A stretch of DNA of 64,000 nucleotides from an uncultured Acidobacteriota bacterium (GCA_963804995.1 CAWDSK010000003.1:1024001-1088000), one strand, 5' to 3'. Positions 10,998 to 24,491 are shown, counted from the first letter of the stretch. A program made the numbers and translations. Notes: generated by a model not told the origin, from the letters alone.

Positions 10998-11333
10998 TTT
11001 CCTGTTTGCCGTGAGAATAGCTCCCCTCCTTGACTGAGGAGGGTATTAAGGAGCTGTGGGATACGGGGACAAATCGCGCGGCTCAACCACCCACTAACCC
11101 CCTCCTTATCAAGGAGTTGAATCACCCACTGCTCTGATTTCTTGGCTACCCCTTAGCCCCAAGGAATCATCATATATACAATCAGCCTTAATGTCAGTTG
11201 CGCACCACCTGACCTTCCCTATACAATGCGCCCCAGATTCATTGGCCACGGCCTTCCGTGGATTCTCTTTCCGGAAGTGATCCCGTTCGCGATGACCGTG
11301 GGGAGCCAGGTTCTTTTCCAAAGGAGTCATGCT

Positions 11334-12072
11334 GTGAAGACATGGGCACACATTAAAATCAGGTGGATTATTCTGTTGGCCGGATTGGCCCTGGCAACCG
11401 CACTGGTCGGGTGTAAGAGCAACCCGGTATCCTCCGAAACTTCCGGTAATGCGCCGAAACCCCAACCCTCGACCCCGGATACGACTGACGCAAGGCGGTT
11501 GAGCAACGGCGCGAATAAACTTCTCGACGCACTCACCAAGCCGACCAACTCCTTCCACTTCTCGTATAAAGGGCAGGTGAATATCAACGAGAAGTATTTT
11601 CGGGATAGAACCCAGGCGCCCCATGTGGGCCCAGTGAACGTGGAGGCAGACGTTTCCACCGGACGAACTTGATCTAGTGGAGACACGCGGTACAACCAGG
11701 AAGGAGTCCAAAGCCAAAAAGGGGGATGAAATGAAATTGGCTTTGGCGAACATGACGTTGCTGGGGCTCATGACCAATGTGAATTTCTCCATCGCGGTGG
11801 GCTCCACGGTGAGCTCCTTGCCGAGCAGCGACATGCTGGGAACGAGTTTGGCCGACAAATACACCTTCGACACGAAACAAGCCAATCCATCCCAAAAGAT
11901 GGGGCTCGACGTGGCCCGCGGGATGCTCGCCCCCATTCAGGAGTCGGCGGGCACGGCCTGGATCGCGAGGAATTCCGGCTTGCTGGTGAAATTCAATATC
12001 GACACGGACTACCTGGATAAGAACGGCCACGCCTGGAAAGAACACTACGAGGGTGAGGTAACCCCGAAGTAG
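11334..12072 (+). CDS. Hypothetical lipoprotein (frameshift near 11670)
   Basis: GTG start after AAGGAG; hydrophobic stretch ending in lipobox LVGC; continues into ORF 11677-12072. Confidence 0.65.
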
Positions 12073-15546: not shown

Positions 15547-16629
15547 CTAGCCGGGCTTGCGGCCCGACATCATCTCGATGCCCAGAGTCTCGAAGCCCAG
15601 TTGGGGGTTAACATTGCGAATCTGCAAGCGATAGGCCTGATCGAGCCCGGCCTTTAGTCGCTCAATTCCCTCCAGGCCGAGCTTCGGGGCCCAGGCCTGA
15701 AGGCGCGGCTGCACGTCAATATTCACAACCACCTCGGGGGAGCTCGCCAACAAGACATGCAGTAGATCCGCCAGCACGGAATAACCAATTTCGAGCGTGC
15801 CGGCAAAGTCATCGCGATTTTCGGTGAGCCCACGGGCGGAGTCGAACAGCAGGCGCCAGTCCGGTGACGCCCCGGGAGCGGCGCGGCCCGCAGTGGCTTC
15901 CAGGAAATCCAGCCAGGGCTTGCGGCGACGCTCGTATTCAGAGGGGTCAAAGGCACGGGCGCGCGCCACGCTGCCCGCCGCCACGCGTGCGGCGAGAGCC
16001 AGTTGGGGCTTCGTGAAATCTTTCTCGCGGGCGAGAAGTTCCTGAATGAGCGGCTCCTCTACGGGCTGGAAAGGGAGGCGCTGACAACGCGAACGGATAG
16101 TCGAGCGCAACTCATTGGCATTCGGGCAAACCAGGATAAAGCGGGTCGTCTCCGGCGGTTCCTCCAGCACCTTGAGCAAGAGGTCAACGGCCTGCCAATG
16201 AATGGTCTGCGCGTCGTCGAGAATGAAGAGGCGGAGTGGGAACTCAAAGGGCCGCGTGTAAGCTATGGCGCGAAGTTGGCGGATCTGTTCCGTGAGAATG
16301 AATTTGGTGAACGGCTCAAGGATTTGGAAATCGAAGTAGACCAGGCCCTCCACGCGGCGGGCGGCCTCCTTGATTTCACGGCGCCGTGCCGAATCTTCCC
16401 GCGCGGCAGCGAACATCTGCTCAGCCTTGCGGCAGCGTGCGCAATGGCCGCAGAAATCTCGAGGGCCGGTCTCGCAAACCAGCGCCTTGGCCAGCATCAG
16501 GGCCAGGGTCTTCTTGCCCACGCCGTCCGGTCCGGTAAAAAGCAGGGCGCCCGGCACACGGCCAGTCACCAGCATTTCACGAACTGCGGCCACCGCCTGC
16601 GGATTACCGAGAAAAGAGTCGAAGCCCAT
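15547..16629 (-). CDS. holB: DNA polymerase III subunit delta'
   Basis: LLFTGPDGVGK, Zn module C...FCGHCARC, LLKVLEEPP, TIRSRCQ; start taken at MGFDSFLGN. Confidence 0.93.
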   Translation of the reverse strand: MGFDSFLGNPQAVAAVREMLVTGRVPGALLFTGPDGVGKKTLALMLAKALVCETGPRDFCGHCARCRKAEQMFAAAREDSARRREIKEAARRVEGLVYFDFQILEPFTKFILTEQIRQLRAIAYTRPFEFPLRLFILDDAQTIHWQAVDLLLKVLEEPPETTRFILVCPNANELRSTIRSRCQRLPFQPVEEPLIQELLAREKDFTKPQLALAARVAAGSVARARAFDPSEYERRRKPWLDFLEATAGRAAPGASPDWRLLFDSARGLTENRDDFAGTLEIGYSVLADLLHVLLASSPEVVVNIDVQPRLQAWAPKLGLEGIERLKAGLDQAYRLQIRNVNPQLGFETLGIEMMSGRKPG

Positions 16630-16832
16630 GTATTCCTCAGAGAAAGCCTTGGGTTTGTGTATCCGTCCTGTGAACTCACCTTTCCCCGGGTTTGTCACTT
16701 ACGTGCGATGGCGAGCTGGACACACATCTATGCGCCAGGGTTATTGCATAACAGTCAACCTTGTGGTGAAGCTGTTCGAGGGGGCCCAAACTCTAACGCA
16801 AAGACAACTGGACATTCTTTTGCATATTTTGT

Positions 16833-17423
16833 CTAGGCGCATTTCGAAATAGCCAACACGTCCCCAAGCTCCAGTCCCACCCTAGCACGGAGTTGGCGAT
16901 TCAGCTGGCGTTTCTGTAAGGGGATTGCTGACAATACGTAGAGGTACTCGTTCAGGTATTCATCAGTAGCCAAGGCGACGAACAATCGCTTAAGGTCGAG
17001 AGGCCTGACCACTATGCAATCACTGGGTAAGGTCCTGGTTGACGCTGCAAATTGGGGAGAGAATATAACCGAGAGTCTAGCGGGAGGCTTGTTGAGATGA
17101 CGTTGGGACAGTTGTTTTAGGCGGTGATCAGAACTCCCGTAGTACCCAAGGGCTCTGCCCCTCACATTCGAACCTGAGCGCAGCCGGAGGCTCAGATCGA
17201 TAATGTCGTAGTCTCTTCGGTGAGCCACCCGTAGAAAACTAAAACCGCTTGCACGCAAGTAGTCTTTGAGCGCAGGCCGGCACTGAGCCAGAGTTCCGGC
17301 TTTCCATTGATTTTCGAAGAACGCCTCGGCTGCTTGTATGTAGCGACGGTAAGTGTACCGATAATTAAGATACCTTTCAGTAAAATGGCTTACGAGATTA
17401 CGCAGAGGTGTTGAAGTTTGCAT
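16833..17423 (-). CDS. Hypothetical 196-aa protein, possibly a degenerate Mrr-like PD-(D/E)xK fold
   Basis: ATG at 17423 with AAAAGGAG inside the end of the upstream gene; YLRASGF...DIIDL...VIFSPQF...IVVRPLDLKRLF resembles the Mrr_cat pattern. Confidence 0.6.
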   Translation of the reverse strand: MQTSTPLRNLVSHFTERYLNYRYTYRRYIQAAEAFFENQWKAGTLAQCRPALKDYLRASGFSFLRVAHRRDYDIIDLSLRLRSGSNVRGRALGYYGSSDHRLKQLSQRHLNKPPARLSVIFSPQFAASTRTLPSDCIVVRPLDLKRLFVALATDEYLNEYLYVLSAIPLQKRQLNRQLRARVGLELGDVLAISKCA

Positions 17424-17427
17424 GCCG

Positions 17428-18198
17428 TTAACTCCTTTTCCTGCGCAAGAGAAGGACAATTCCCAATGCCGCCAAGGCGGCTCCACCTACGAGTGTCCGG
17501 GAGGGCAGTGGCAGGATTGCAAACAAACTCAAGAAAGCTGCAGCTACGACAGCACCGACCGCGGCCAGGAAAATCCATTCTTGAATCCTCTGGCTCACCG
17601 CAGTGAGAGCCTCCAGCCGCTCAAACCTGTAGTTGACTGTGCTTAAAGTAGAGGTCATCTCGTCCAGCCGTTGGCTGATCTCTATGATGCTATAAGAAAT
17701 CCGTTTCGGCACCGCCGGGGTTTGCTGGGGTTTGCTGATTTCCTCTCCGCCTTTGTACTTACAACTGGCCTGATTGTTGAGATGTTCGAACTCGCAGGTC
17801 GCAAGCGGGTCTTCATATACTAATTCGATCGGCGAATCTGTAATGTTTGCCAACGGGAAAAAAAGTAAACCGTTGTAGCCGGGGTCAATGAGCCCGCCAG
17901 AGTAAAATAACCCACGAAGTTGATGAAAGGAGCGCAACGATAGCCGACCTGCCATATTCTGCGGTAGCTTAATCTTCTCCCGACTCGATACAATGCAGGA
18001 CTGGCCGGGCTGCAAACTAAACGAACGTTGGATAATTAGTGAGTAACCACGAAGTCCATCTGGATGTGCAACGATTACGGTTTCTCCGATCCTGAAGTCA
18101 TAAGATGCGCCCTTTAGGCGGTTAGGTTCGAAAGGGGATATAAGACCTTGTTCCTCGGCGGCGGCTTCAATTTCTGTATCAACAAGTGTCTTACCCAT
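17428..18198 (-). CDS. dCTP deaminase/dUTPase-fold protein with C-terminal coiled coil and two TM helices
   Basis: ISPFEP...ASYDFRIG, LQPGQ, EKIKLP, LRS, GLIDPGYNG; then heptad segment ISQRLDEMTSTLSTVNYRFERLE, two hydrophobic helices and an RRKRS tail. Confidence 0.85.
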   Translation of the reverse strand: MGKTLVDTEIEAAAEEQGLISPFEPNRLKGASYDFRIGETVIVAHPDGLRGYSLIIQRSFSLQPGQSCIVSSREKIKLPQNMAGRLSLRSFHQLRGLFYSGGLIDPGYNGLLFFPLANITDSPIELVYEDPLATCEFEHLNNQASCKYKGGEEISKPQQTPAVPKRISYSIIEISQRLDEMTSTLSTVNYRFERLEALTAVSQRIQEWIFLAAVGAVVAAAFLSLFAILPLPSRTLVGGAALAALGIVLLLRRKRS

Positions 18199-18205
18199 GT
18201 CGCCA

Positions 18206-18921
18206 TCACCTCTTGTCAGTTTCGACGCTTTCGATCAAGTCCAGTTGCTCCGAAGAATCATATCCAGACTCTGAGAAAGCTCGCTTCACAATAGTGAAAA
18301 TGTTCTTGCGGACAACCTCAATCGGCTCATTGCCATCGACTGTGAAAATCTTATGTCCTTCCGATTGCAGCCGCTTGATGCAAGTTTGGTAGTTGTCGCG
18401 AACAAGGGTCAGCCTTCCTATATCCTCGAATAGTTCCACGTGCCAACGCTGTGCATCCATCCTTTTCTTTGCTATCTCAGACGGCACGTCCAAGAAGATA
18501 GTGACATCAGGGGGCAGACACTTGAGGTTTATTTGACGGACCCACTCAAACTCTAAGTCGACGCTCTGATATGCGAAGCTGGAAAGCCAGTACCGATCAG
18601 CAACTACGGTTATCCCCTTCTCGAGTTTTGGAAGAATATCTGTTGCAAGATGGTCCATTCTGTCCGCAGCAAACATTAGTGCCATGGCGGCTGAGTCGAG
18701 ACTAGAATAGCCACCTTGCGACGCAGTTGTGGAGTTTGTGGGAGAAAAGAGGCGCCTAGACAAAGCGAGGCGGATGATGGCGCCAACAGGGCCAGCGGTT
18801 GGCTCCTTGGTTAAGTACGAGAGTCTGTTTTGTTTGTCAAGCCACTTCTTGAGTAACTCAGCCTGAGTCGTGATGCCCGACCCGTCTGTTCCCTGAGCAC
18901 TATGAACCTACCCCGAGCCAT
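18206..18921 (-). CDS. tmk: Divergent thymidylate kinase (1-bp frameshift near 18895)
   Basis: MARGRFIVL[E]GTDGSGITTQ...TKEPT...LMFAADRMDH...VADRYWLSSFAYQ...PDVTIFLDV. The ORF track captures only 18206-18763. Confidence 0.85.
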
Positions 18922-19042
18922 CTGTCACCCCTTCGGAAAATTGGAATTCAACATCGTGAAGCGCGCATATCTTACCACACGCCGCAGTCGAGCTCTCGTT
19001 TTCACAAATACAAGTATGCCACACTGTACCTCGCATATATCC

Positions 19043-19192
19043 TTACTCTTTGGCATTTCGCACATTTCTCACAACGTCCCGACTCCAATATACATAGCCC
19101 CCTCGAAGCGAGCGCTGAAACGGAAATCGAAGCTGCGTGCTCTTGCCGGTGCCGTCAATCCCTTCGAAAGTGATGAAGAGGCCGGGTTGCAT
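19043..19192 (-). pseudogene. tmk: 5' stub of the native thymidylate kinase
   Basis: Manual translation MQPGLFITFEGIDGTGKSTQLRFPFQRSLRGGYVYWSRDVVRNVRNAKE*: canonical TMK P-loop, then loss of homology and a stop after 49 aa. Confidence 0.85.
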
Positions 19193-19477: not shown

Positions 19478-20179
19478 ATGGAGAATGTAATCAGCATTAC
19501 AGAAAACGTGGCGCGCGTCGAAGAGCGCATCACCGCCGCCTGCCGGCGCAGCGGCCGCAAACGCGAGGAGGTGCGTCTGGTGGCAGTTTCGAAAACGCAT
19601 CCGCCAGAGCAAATTCGCGCGGCCTTTGATGCGGGCCTGCGTGACTTCGGTGAAAACCGGGTGCAGGAAGCAAAGGCCAAGCGGCCGGCGCTGGCAGACT
19701 TGGCCATTACCTGGCACCTGGTGGGGCATCTCCAAACCAACAAGGCGGGGGCCGCGCGCGAAATGTTCCATTGGGTACATTCTGTGGATTCTTGGCGCCT
19801 GGCTGAGAAGCTCGCGCAGCTCGCCTCGCCAGACGCTGCGCCCTTACCGGTGCTAATGGAAGTGAATTTGGGTGAGGAGGCATCCAAAGCGGGCATGCGC
19901 GTGGCCGATGTGCTGGATAGCGCTGCGCAGATTGGTCAGCTTCGAACGCTCGACCTGCGTGGCCTGATGGTGATTCCTCCGTTTCTCGAGGATCCCGAAC
20001 AGGTCCGGCCGTACTTCCGGCAATTACGCAGACTGGCGCGTGAGATTGAGGCGCACAACTTGCCGAACGTCTCGATGCGCGAACTTTCCATGGGCATGAG
20101 CCACGATTTCGAAGTGGCCATCGAAGAAGGCGCCACGATCGTACGCGTGGGAACGGCAATCTTTGGAGCGCGTGGTTAG
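19478..20179 (+). CDS. yggS: PLP homeostasis protein, YggS family
   Basis: LVAVSKT, FGENRVQE, WHLVGHLQTNK, LSMGMSHDFEVAIEEGATIVRVGTAIFG. Confidence 0.96.
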   Translation: MENVISITENVARVEERITAACRRSGRKREEVRLVAVSKTHPPEQIRAAFDAGLRDFGENRVQEAKAKRPALADLAITWHLVGHLQTNKAGAAREMFHWVHSVDSWRLAEKLAQLASPDAAPLPVLMEVNLGEEASKAGMRVADVLDSAAQIGQLRTLDLRGLMVIPPFLEDPEQVRPYFRQLRRLAREIEAHNLPNVSMRELSMGMSHDFEVAIEEGATIVRVGTAIFGARG

Positions 20180-21949: not shown

Positions 21950-24491
21950 TTGAGAATTCGACCCCTTGCACTTTTTCTTGGCGTGATGATTCTGGGGATG
22001 GCGCGCGCTGCATCCGGGCAGAGCAGCGGCAACCTGGCCGATTGGACGATCTACGTAACGAACGACACGTGTCCTGATTACACGTGGGGATTCTCTGAGG
22101 ACGTGACGCGGAGAAGCTTTGCCGATCTGGTGCGGGCGCATCTGGATGAAATGCAGCGCACCGACGGCGAGCGCGTCGAGAACCGTGACCACTACAACAT
22201 GGCGGTGACGCAGGAGGCACTGTGCTTCCTCAAGGTACCCGGAGCGGCGCGATGAACTGGTTCGGCGCATTCACGAGGGCAGGGTGTTCGTCAGCCCCTT
22301 CCTCAATAACTCACTCTGGGGCTTCCAGAGTGTCGAAGGAATGATCCGCACGCTATATCCTGCCCGCCGCCTGGAACGAGGCTGGGGCATGCCTATGACG
22401 GTGGCCCATCACATTGAACTGCCCTCCTTGCCCTGGGGTGTCGCATCAATTCTCGCCGGCTGCGGAGTGCGCTGGCTGCTGGTGCCGTTCTACGATTTTG
22501 ACTCGACGTTTGCAAGTCTGGACAATCCACCGCTCTTTGCCTACGAAGGGCCGGACGGGGCACGACTGCGGGTCATCATGGACCCGTGGGCCTCAGGAAA
22601 ATGGAGCTATGCGCAAGGCGCCGCGGTGCTCGGCAATCCCGAACTGATTTCCCGACAGTGGCTGCCCCATTATGCAGGTTTGGGTGACAAGTACCCTTTA
22701 AAGGCGGTACTGGCCAGCGGCACGCACAGCGATTACTCGCCCCGGAGCGCGTCGCAGGCGCCGGGATTCGCCGACGCAATCATCCATTACAACGCGAGAC
22801 CGGGGCCGCATCCCCGACTGGTGAACGCCATTCTCCCCCAATTCACGGAACAGGTTGACCAGGAGGAAGCACACCGGCCCTTCTTGAGAGTCCTGCGCGG
22901 TTCGTTTGGAAATTCGTGGGAGTCGTGGCCGGTCAGCCTGGCGAAGTACGCAGCCGCCATGCGTGAGGGCGAGCGACGTTTCCTGGCGGCGGAAGCGTTG
23001 ATGGCCCTGGCAGGGTGGCGAAACCCTTCGGCGGTAGACTCCAGTCGCCCCGACCGCGAACGCGCTGAATGGGATTTGGCAATGCTCGGCGATCACGCTT
23101 GGAACGGCGCGGACGAAACCAACAAGCAAGTGAATGCGGCTCTGCGGCGGAAGTGGTCGGAAGAGTTGTTGTCAATTGACCAGCGGCTGGCCCGCCAGGC
23201 ATGGGCCGGAATTGGGCTCAAGGAGCACTCGGATTCATTAATCGTATTCAACAGTCTGAGTTTCCCGCGCACGGGCCTGGTTTGCGTGGAGCCGGCGCCG
23301 GGCGTGACCGGCGTAGCGACCGAAACGTCGGGGCTGAATGCCCAGTGGGTCGATGAAAACGGCCGGCACGTGTTGTGCTTTGTATCGCCCAGGGTGGAGG
23401 GGTTTGGATTCAAGCGCCTGCTCATGACGCGAAGTTCGACCACACCCGCGAGGGCGGAGAACCGCCTTCGCGCGACTGACCGCGAATTGGAAAGCCCTTA
23501 CTACAGTCTAACGGTTGACCCGGCAACGGGCGGAATCTCGAATCTGGTGTGGAAGGCCACCGGCAGGCAGCTCCTCAAGAGTAGCCAGGGACGGACGGTT
23601 GGGCAAACCCTCTTTTTTGACGGGCAAGACCATCCGCTCGAAGATGTGAAGTCGGAGGTTGTCTCTACCGGGCCGGTGCTGGCGCGGTTGAAGATTGTGG
23701 GGCGAACCGCCGGCATTGATCTTACGACCTTTGTGACGGTCTATGCTGATCTCGATCAGGTTGATTTTGATATGCGTGTAAAGAAGCCCCTCTCGTCACA
23801 AGAACAGCGGCTGACGCACATTTTTCCCGTAATACCATCGGGGGCAATGCTGCGAATTGAAACCACTGGGGCGGTGGTTCGGCCGCAAATGCAACCCGCG
23901 GGGGATATGTTGCCAGGCTCGGACTTGCGGCGCTTGGTGGTGCAGGGGTTCGTCGATGCTTCTCTCGCGGGGGGTGAGGGAGTTACCCTGGCCCCCCTCG
24001 ATTCCTTCCTCCTGCGCGCCGACCTGGATGCTGTGACTTTTGAAGCCCTGGGCAACGATCAGGACTACAAAGAGGTGATCAGGGACCAGGCTGGAGAGAC
24101 GGAGTTCCGCTTTCGTTACAGCCTGCGAGCCCACCGGGGGGGTTACCAAAGCGCGGGCGCATTTGCCTGGAGCCGGAGTGCGGCTACTTCCTTGTTAACA
24201 GCTTGGGGTGAGTTATCGCGAAACTCCTTGCCCCGGCTGGTGGTAGATCAAGCCCGTGCCATCGCCACTGCTTTCAAGCCTGCGGACGAGGGGTCAGCAC
24301 GCGGGGTAATCGTTCGCCTGTGGGAGACGGGAGGAACTTTCGGACCGCTTCGGCTGGGCACAGGGGGGTTCCGGCGATCGTATCGCTGTGACCTGCTGGA
24401 ACGTGACCTGGGGGAATTGAGAATGGACGAGGGGGAAGTGGCGGTGCCGCTCGAAGCCAACGGTTTTGGATCAGTTCGGCTGGTTCGGTAA
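21950..24491 (+). CDS. Secreted GH38/alpha-mannosidase-like glycoside hydrolase (frameshift near 22235)
   Basis: Signal peptide; DYTWG, DHAWNG, IVFNSLSFPR, LESPYYSLTVDPATGGI, AFKPADE...IVRLWE GH38-like architecture. Confidence 0.7.

Follow-up and report, generated by a model that had tools for sequence, protein, structure and literature searches.

A dTMP-kinase-family gene and a Dcd-fold membrane protein gene at the displaced tmk site of an uncultured Acidobacteriota bacterium, a candidate anti-phage cassette

What does a cassette of foreign genes do at the chromosomal site of tmk, the gene for the essential dTMP kinase? This question is raised by a 64,000-nucleotide stretch of DNA from an uncultured Acidobacteriota bacterium (GCA_963804995.1 CAWDSK010000003.1:1024001-1088000), hereafter called the window, which corresponds to G000:C3:1024001-1088000 of the source assembly G000 (7.55 Mb, 9 contigs). 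Between yggS and holB, three co-oriented genes lie on the minus strand with gaps of 7 and 4 bp, as a first-pass annotation of the window had described. They encode a kinase of the dTMP kinase family (tmk*), a Dcd/dUTPase-fold protein, and a small protein termed open reading frame 3 (ORF3). The same annotation proposed an undescribed nucleotide-centred defence cassette. For comparison, genomes (G), loci (L), and proteins (P) are labeled and numbered; the genomes are metagenome assemblies. The cassette is real and conserved across two phyla, and it has displaced the native tmk. Its function is unproven, and a role in defence is proposed by analogy. The reading preferred here is that the cassette occupies the tmk site, provides the kinase that the cell cannot do without, and encodes a membrane-coupled receptor for a pyrimidine deoxynucleoside triphosphate (dNTP) that acts in phage infection; the chances for and against it are about evenly balanced.

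The displacement is shown by synteny. Intact native tmk lies directly upstream of holB in 17 of 17 congener holB loci, with yggS visible in 14. In the window, only the start of this gene is left, which is 73–95% identical to the Tmk N-termini of 16 of the 17 congeners and 63% identical to that of the remaining one. After codon 22, the native frame enters foreign DNA and meets a stop at ~19043. DNA homology to the congeners ends at 19128 and resumes at ~16634. Because tmk is intact at this place in the congeners and homology breaks at these two points, the native gene has been replaced from codon 23 on. That the insert sits inside the native tmk is a detail absent from the first-pass annotation. 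Among 136 other genomes of the order searched, tmk* was found in none; the acquisition is hence recent.

The foreign origin is further supported by base composition, and the cassette is AT-richer than its neighbors, as had been noted. Its genes have a guanine–cytosine (GC) content of 0.49–0.51 and a third-position content (GC3) of 0.53–0.54, compared with 0.58–0.63 and 0.68–0.74 in five neighboring genes. The insert as a whole (~2.5 kb) has 50% GC in contigs of 58–59% GC, and when the genome is cut into 3018 tiles of 2.5 kb, only 0.23% of them are equally AT-rich. A value of over 70% GC, given earlier for one line of holB, does not represent the gene, which has 62.5%. Around the insert, no promoters above chance, attachment-site repeats, terminal repeats, insertion-sequence signs, or integrase were found. 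Close to the two insert ends (16775-16785 and 19097-19107) are the arms of a perfect 11-bp inverted repeat, of which about one is expected by chance in 3.3 kb. The features of the locus are collected in Table 1.

Table 1. Features of the cassette and its flanks, in window positions
Feature	Position	Strand	Basis or remark
Native tmk remnant, 22 N-terminal codons with the P-loop and its Lys	19127..19192	-	Congener comparison
Foreign upstream spacer, with ribosome-binding site for tmk*	18922..19126	-	
tmk*, xenologous dTMP-kinase-family gene, ~238 codons, ATG at 18921	18206..18921	-	DRY intact, Walker A Lys replaced by Ile
Dcd/dUTPase-fold protein, 256 aa	17428..18198	-	Pfam DCD and hydrophobic helices
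ORF3, 196 aa, small unnamed family, probable accessory	16833..17423	-	Profile comparison, alignment, model
Foreign downstream spacer	16635..16832	-	Congener DNA homology back just before holB
holB, native right flank	15547..16626	-	
yggS, native left flank, divergent	19478..20179	+	

Ten loci make up the close clade: the window, three from a genome scan, one of eight metagenome matches, three new ones among 401 Anaerolineae-class genomes, and two new ones among 401 Dehalococcoidia-class genomes. They belong to Acidobacteriota and two classes of Chloroflexota, and in all ten, the gene immediately upstream of the Dcd-fold gene is tmk*. No hydroxymethylase partner was seen at any of them. The Dcd-fold protein has its membrane form in seven. 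The native tmk site is occupied in six: in the window, L021, and L062, the cassette lies between yggS and holB, and in L022, L148, and L149 it lies behind an R3H-AAA gene that precedes native tmk in four of four control loci. The window, L149, L148, and L022 still have remnants of native tmk beside the cassette. All three genes co-occur elsewhere, as had been anticipated, in the same order in L023, and ORF3 relatives are also found in L150 and L151. At L022, a second insertion is seen at the same tmk site; herein a gene for a deaminase fused to a MazG-like region (L022:7473-8926) has an intact native tmk on one side and a duplicate of the tmk 3′ end on the other. In the protein P0171, the start of such an L022-type deaminase is joined to an ORF3 relative.

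The assignment of the first gene to the dTMP kinases is borne out by matches to Thymidylate_kin and TIGR00041. Against an equivalog cut-off of 83.25, the partial tmk* frame scores 98.9 bits and the intact L021 kinase 157.5 bits, and the DRY motif is present. The Walker A Lys, described as strictly conserved in a passage of 10.1101/2022.06.23.497301, is absent from all cassette kinases with an N terminus, which carry Ile, Leu, Thr, Gly, or Val instead. This loss does not imply a dead enzyme, since sole housekeeping copies lack the Lys as well; for the same reason, the loss was considered and rejected as a mark of a specialized signal kinase. In a tree with rough supports, tmk* groups with the cassette kinases of other phyla, apart from the native enzymes; rows L107 and L108 of this tree picked the same gene of contig C6, and only one of the C6 pair described below is placed. 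The PADLOC model PDC-M51B matches tmk* at 1e-12, and membership was set aside as a generic kinase match because a native housekeeping Tmk scores too, at 3e-15. A C-terminal extension of ~100 aa without Pfam match is found in the kinase of L022:4882-5889 and in the 306-aa kinases of L150–L152.

No full-length canonical Tmk other than that of tmk* was found in G1201, G1220, or G542, and the same holds for G000 apart from a divergent tandem pair on C6. This pair of Tmk-like genes (G000:C6:1533581-1535118; L193) has the Walker Lys intact and may be a back-up kinase; weak tandem pairs resembling it occur in G757, G782, and G828. Native Tmk is retained alongside tmk* in G543, G544, G757, G782, and G828, and the fact that tmk* is kept beside the Dcd-fold gene where a native Tmk exists argues for a functional coupling of the two. 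We infer that tmk* functions as a dTMP kinase and belongs to an alternative clade, which weakens the idea of a dedicated signal kinase. The kinase had been proposed as a possible generator of an unusual nucleotide; it is not obviously a dedicated signal maker, as it replaces the essential Tmk and its clade also occurs as solo housekeeping enzymes.

As assembled, tmk* contains a single frameshift near 18,895. If this frameshift were real, the cassette could be a decaying copy that no longer works, with deoxythymidine diphosphate supplied by the C6 pair, whose Walker Lys fits such a role. However, 13 of 130 conserved orthologues are frameshifted in the G000 assembly—dnaX among them—and TCGA lies within 17 nt of 6 of 14 break points, compared with a background of 7.3%. 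The break in tmk* appears to sit where Leu-Glu codons would make TCGA; the control breaks are mostly insertions, whereas that of tmk* is a deletion. The orthologues in L062 (74% identical) and L021 are intact, as are the Dcd-fold gene and ORF3 of the window. The frameshift is probably an assembly error, which is the likelier reading, and a decaying copy is highly improbable. The ~10% of frameshifted conserved genes call for caution with other broken-gene findings in G000. Two genes elsewhere in the window are apparently split, possibly by assembly indels: one into the adjacent plus-strand reading frames 11226-11672 and 11677-12072, and, less clearly, one at 21950-22255 on the minus strand read with 22284-24491.

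The second gene encodes a Dcd fold with two membrane helices, in line with its first description, on the basis of the Pfam DCD match and of hydrophobic helices that start at residues 211 and 233. The protein consists of a head (residues 1–150), a coiled coil (~171–210), and the membrane helices from ~211 and ~233; the AlphaFold model, with a predicted local distance difference test (pLDDT) value of 95, shows the Dcd head followed by helices 171–228 and 231–255. The score against the dCTP deaminase equivalog TIGR02274 is 65.4 bits, below the cut-off of 92.8. The deaminase Glu is replaced: Pro115 aligns with the E138A site of 1xs4 (E. coli Glu138), and the six residues most frequent at this position, which account for 116 of 128 homologues, do not include Glu. 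The motif-4 position is occupied by Thr134—among the 128 homologues, Thr occurs 80 times, Ser 28 times, and Gln twice—and a Glu at position 136 is specific to the family (97 of 128). The deaminase Glu, which is named in Protein Data Bank (PDB) titles too, and the motif-4 Gln are residues that we take to be catalytic. Judged from these replacements, deamination by this protein is very unlikely and hydrolysis of nucleotides doubtful.

The Dcd-like trimer of the earlier description is reproduced by modeling, with the coiled coil running into the membrane helices. The three-copy model scores 0.80, compared with 0.01 for the best control, its runs share at least 94% of contacts, and pLDDT is at least 78. 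The mark applied is one that 20 of 30 solved self-pairs attain, compared with 1 of 23 monomers, and the pass may reflect likeness to solved Dcd trimers. Model contacts follow heptad spacing across residues 174–220, forming a predicted three-helix stalk that continues into the first membrane helix. For Dcd trimers, a passage of PMC4827122 describes all-or-none cooperative switching on binding of deoxythymidine triphosphate (dTTP); hence, the stalk would be a plausible route of signal transmission.

ORF3 had been called Mrr-like and regarded as a partner of the other two proteins. It was found in only 4 of the 10 close-clade loci. No Pfam or NCBIfam entry matches it, and no PADLOC model matches either ORF3 or the Dcd-fold protein. 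The ORF3 model has a pLDDT of 68 and an α/β core; at best a weak likeness to restriction-endonuclease-like folds is seen, with Z scores of 6.1–6.8 to 1y88, XisH 2okf, AspBHI, MspJI, and NucS that are tied with those to unrelated folds. Atlas fold leads stay below 0.9, and Foldseek gives no match at E ≤0.001. In a 13-sequence alignment of the family, no acidic or Lys residue is invariant (only L19, L56, G60, G84, and G89 are), and the catalytic residues of the PD-(D/E)xK type, Asp and (D/E/Q)xK, are not conserved. The family link between ORF3 and the L023 protein comes from profile comparison (89.9% probability, E 1.7e-6) and is not significant in a single-sequence comparison. ORF3 is thus probably an inactive nuclease-like accessory and not an Mrr enzyme.

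The Dcd-fold protein belongs to a wider family of Dcd-membrane proteins. In the order, 16 of 137 genomes have a member at E ≤1e-20; G000 and G441 are counted here, and G441, on which nothing else in this account depends, is also among the 136 genomes negative for tmk*. At E ≤1e-30, the family comprises 44 cluster representatives. A hydrophobic helix follows the head in 106 of the 153 top relatives, and forms with tandem heads exist. Ten proteins have tandem Dcd heads before membrane helices (P0010-P0012, P0014, P0035, P0048, P0050, P0052, P0055, and P0070), and several tandem-head proteins lack the IDPG motif in both heads. The partners of the wider family are nucleotide enzymes, including PurA, kinases, MazG, UDG, ThyX, Nudix, radical SAM, and nucleoside deoxyribosyltransferase-like proteins. 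The uracil-related ones among these partners make deoxyuridine triphosphate (dUTP) or a related nucleotide the preferred putative ligand. A recurrent operon (L070, L087, L088, L092, L093, L170, and L172) combines an RNase H-like/DUF429 protein, a kinase, a short PurA-like enzyme, and a Dcd-membrane protein; an XRE regulator often precedes this operon. On plasmids, an operon in L194, L196, and L197 contains genes for a Dcd-membrane protein and a flavin mononucleotide (FMN) oxidoreductase, and in two of the three for a small MazG-like protein; in two cases this operon comes right after CBASS or Gabija. Speaking for the preferred reading, distant relatives (23–30% identity) in the four plasmid regions opened, out of 10 matches, immediately follow a CBASS pair and a Gabija pair and have PDC-S60/PDC-M37B and a CapP-like gene nearby. 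Searches of viral contigs and phage records matched the Dcd head domain alone. A soluble two-domain Dcd of 412 aa is encoded in a low-GC cluster beside an IS21-like element of G000 (G000:C5:1246596-1251901), together with products that read from the translation as E2-like, sigma-like, ImmA/IrrE-like peptidase, and GNAT-ASCH.

The preferred reading can be set out as a series of steps. The mobile unit would be a two-gene core, tmk* and the gene for the Dcd-fold membrane protein, to which extras such as ORF3 are added in some loci; this core inserts preferentially where tmk lies in the chromosome, in many cases at the cost of the native gene. Judged from gene content, tmk* would be an active dTMP kinase that takes over the essential job and thereby helps the cassette to be retained. 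The Dcd-fold trimer is predicted from sequence and models to bind a pyrimidine dNTP without deamination or efficient hydrolysis, and the three-helix stalk would relay the bound state to the membrane helices. By analogy with known systems, a phage that skews the pyrimidine pool—raising dUTP or a 5-modified dNTP, or lowering dTTP—could make the trimer switch, damage the membrane, and abort the infection. tmk* may herein phosphorylate the deoxynucleoside monophosphate (dNMP) precursor of the sensed nucleotide, with a uracil-type ligand favored; ORF3 would be a noncatalytic accessory, and the ligand might either activate or restrain the effector. In a bolder version, which is unlikely as a whole, the cassette would swap the essential Tmk of the host for a kinase of relaxed specificity and thus turn the only dTTP route into a trip-wire: deoxyuridine monophosphate or 5-modified dNMPs from phages with uracil or hydroxymethyl bases would be fed to a membrane receptor derived from a dead dUTPase, and the infected cell would be killed by it.

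Several observations weigh against the preferred reading, and they begin with the kinase. Among 10 Tmk matches in the 401 Dehalococcoidia-class genomes, 7 have no Dcd neighbor within 1.5 kb. In L202, a close relative of tmk* sits alone at the native tmk site without a Dcd neighbor, and the Lys-less Tmk is the sole Tmk above cut-off in all five genomes tested of those seven. As Lys-less Tmks are so common without a Dcd neighbor, the kinase may be a mere vehicle. Moreover, because the genomes are metagenome assemblies, the status of tmk* as sole Tmk is not certain. tmk* could hence be an ordinary dTMP kinase of an alternative clade, which allows incoming DNA to take the place of tmk without the death of the cell, with the Dcd-membrane gene and ORF3 as kinase-independent passengers; 6 of 15 wider-family loci likewise have no co-oriented nucleotide enzyme beside the Dcd-membrane gene. 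However, the pair stays together at every close-clade locus, including those off the tmk site and those with an intact native Tmk, and the kinase is present as three paralogues in L151 and L152, which makes independent passengers quite unlikely. The first-pass annotation had named homologs in housekeeping nucleotide operons as evidence against a defence cassette; such a setting is found in part, because tmk* replaced the essential Tmk and its clade also occurs alone. The Lys-less clade is represented by loci L202-L208, four of which lie behind purH.

The receptor itself raises further points against the preferred reading. The closest sequence and fold matches of the Dcd-fold protein are 8y1w and 9ln0, active archaeal dUTPases that also lack the deaminase Glu, followed by Dcd and Dcd-Dut. 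With the archaeal Dcd-like dUTPases and with E. coli Dcd and Dcd-Dut (1xs1, 2qxx, and 4xjc), it shares the fold, the trimer (here modeled), the RS and IDPG motifs, and the motif-3 Asp, and with the archaeal enzymes also the short loop. The motif-3 Asp, whose role is described in a passage of PMC4827122, is kept (D105; 122 of 128 homologues), as are R89 and S90 of motif 2. The cassette could therefore be a traveling metabolic module in which an active, membrane-tethered dUTPase or modified-dNTP pyrophosphatase and tmk* form a portable thymidylate and sanitizing pathway, with any anti-phage effect arising from the removal of dUTP or modified dNTPs rather than from signaling or a damaged membrane. 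Such a module would fit the housekeeping nature of the site, the Dcd-fold protein being the only PF00692 match in G000, and the soluble 171-aa Dcd form of the Anaerolineae loci L150–L152, which are related and not independent. In these three loci, a P-loop ATPase follows the soluble Dcd, and L150 and L151 also contain a NACHT protein and their ORF3 relative. Compared with the archaeal dUTPases and Dcd, however, the window protein has Thr in place of the motif-4 Gln, which is present in 8y1w, 9ln0, and 4xjc, and adds Glu136 and a C-terminal coiled coil with two membrane helices; stalk and anchor have no evident use for a sanitizing enzyme. In addition, G000 encodes a separate canonical Dcd, and the spread of the cassette is patchy, as the absence of tmk* from the rest of the order shows. 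A metabolic module is possible, on the unlikely side.

The genomic context is the last point that speaks against a role in defence. The close-clade loci do not lie in defence islands; PADLOC recognizes no system flanking any of the ten, and the nearest hint is the NACHT protein of L150 and L151. For the wider family, up to seven neighbors were scanned at each of 20 loci and 16 control loci. The raw PADLOC counts are 10 of 129 neighbors (9 of the 20 loci) versus 7 of 104 (6 of the 16 control loci), which is no enrichment; 8 versus 1 are left only after post hoc removal of generic domains.

How the preferred reading relates to known systems is best seen by comparison. Defensive dCTP deaminases such as AvcD consist of a zinc deaminase fold fused to a kinase. 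The cassette shares with AvcD and the PADLOC dCTPase models the kinase-fold part and the theme of cytosine nucleotides; in contrast, its proteins match no dCTPase model and the deaminase Glu is missing. In logic, the cassette as read here resembles Kongming, composed of the deaminase KomA, the HAM1-like receptor KomB, and the Sir2 NADase KomC, as described in PMC13434031 and PMC13454610: a catalytically dead housekeeping fold for nucleotide sanitizing senses an unusual dNTP, in whose synthesis a dNMP kinase takes part. The folds are unrelated, however. Here the putative receptor would be a pyrimidine-binding Dcd trimer with a fused putative membrane effector, the kinase comes with the cassette and stands in for that of the host, and the core has no deaminase or Sir2 gene; no KomA deaminase, KomB HAM1 fold, or KomC Sir2 was found among the cassette proteins or the scanned neighbors. 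With CBASS, Pycsar, and Panoptes, the cassette shares the architecture of a nucleotide-binding head on membrane helices, and PMC13577387 on Panoptes describes that a ligand can restrain, not activate, a membrane effector. The putative ligand here is a linear dNTP, unlike in these systems, and no nucleotide cyclase or nucleotidyltransferase gene was found in the cassette of the window or at the other close-clade loci.

DefensePredictor offers a further comparison. According to passages of PMC13092281, the validated system DS-4 contains a thymidylate synthase, a dNMP kinase, a base-modification protein, and a TIR protein, and unvalidated predicted systems contain MazG, MazG-C, dUTPase, and UDG domains. 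Nucleotide kinases and dUTPase-fold genes are thus shared, and the MazG-C and UDG partners match neighbors of the wider family, which may therefore already be predicted in print. DS-4 differs in that its five listed products include neither a Dcd-fold protein nor a Tmk, and in these passages there is no mention of a membrane anchor, of Tmk as a partner, or of tmk being displaced. In PMC13069673, no matching terms occur in the text or its one supplement checked. In the literature searched, mostly papers open without subscription and with looser matches judged by title and start of abstract, no paper on this cassette was found. It matches no described system among those searched and tested.

If the preferred reading is true, the cassette would be a pyrimidine counterpart to Kongming, in which a dUTPase-fold receptor is wired straight to the membrane; such a receptor would be what marks out a large family whose nucleotide-enzyme partners can be exchanged. 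The cassette would further illustrate how accessory genes can persist without an integrase or toxin–antitoxin addiction, namely by moving into the position of an essential gene, which is observed here for tmk in two phyla. Should a role in defence prove wrong, two results would still be open to testing: a Tmk clade able to function with no Walker A Lys, and the repeated in-place displacement of tmk.

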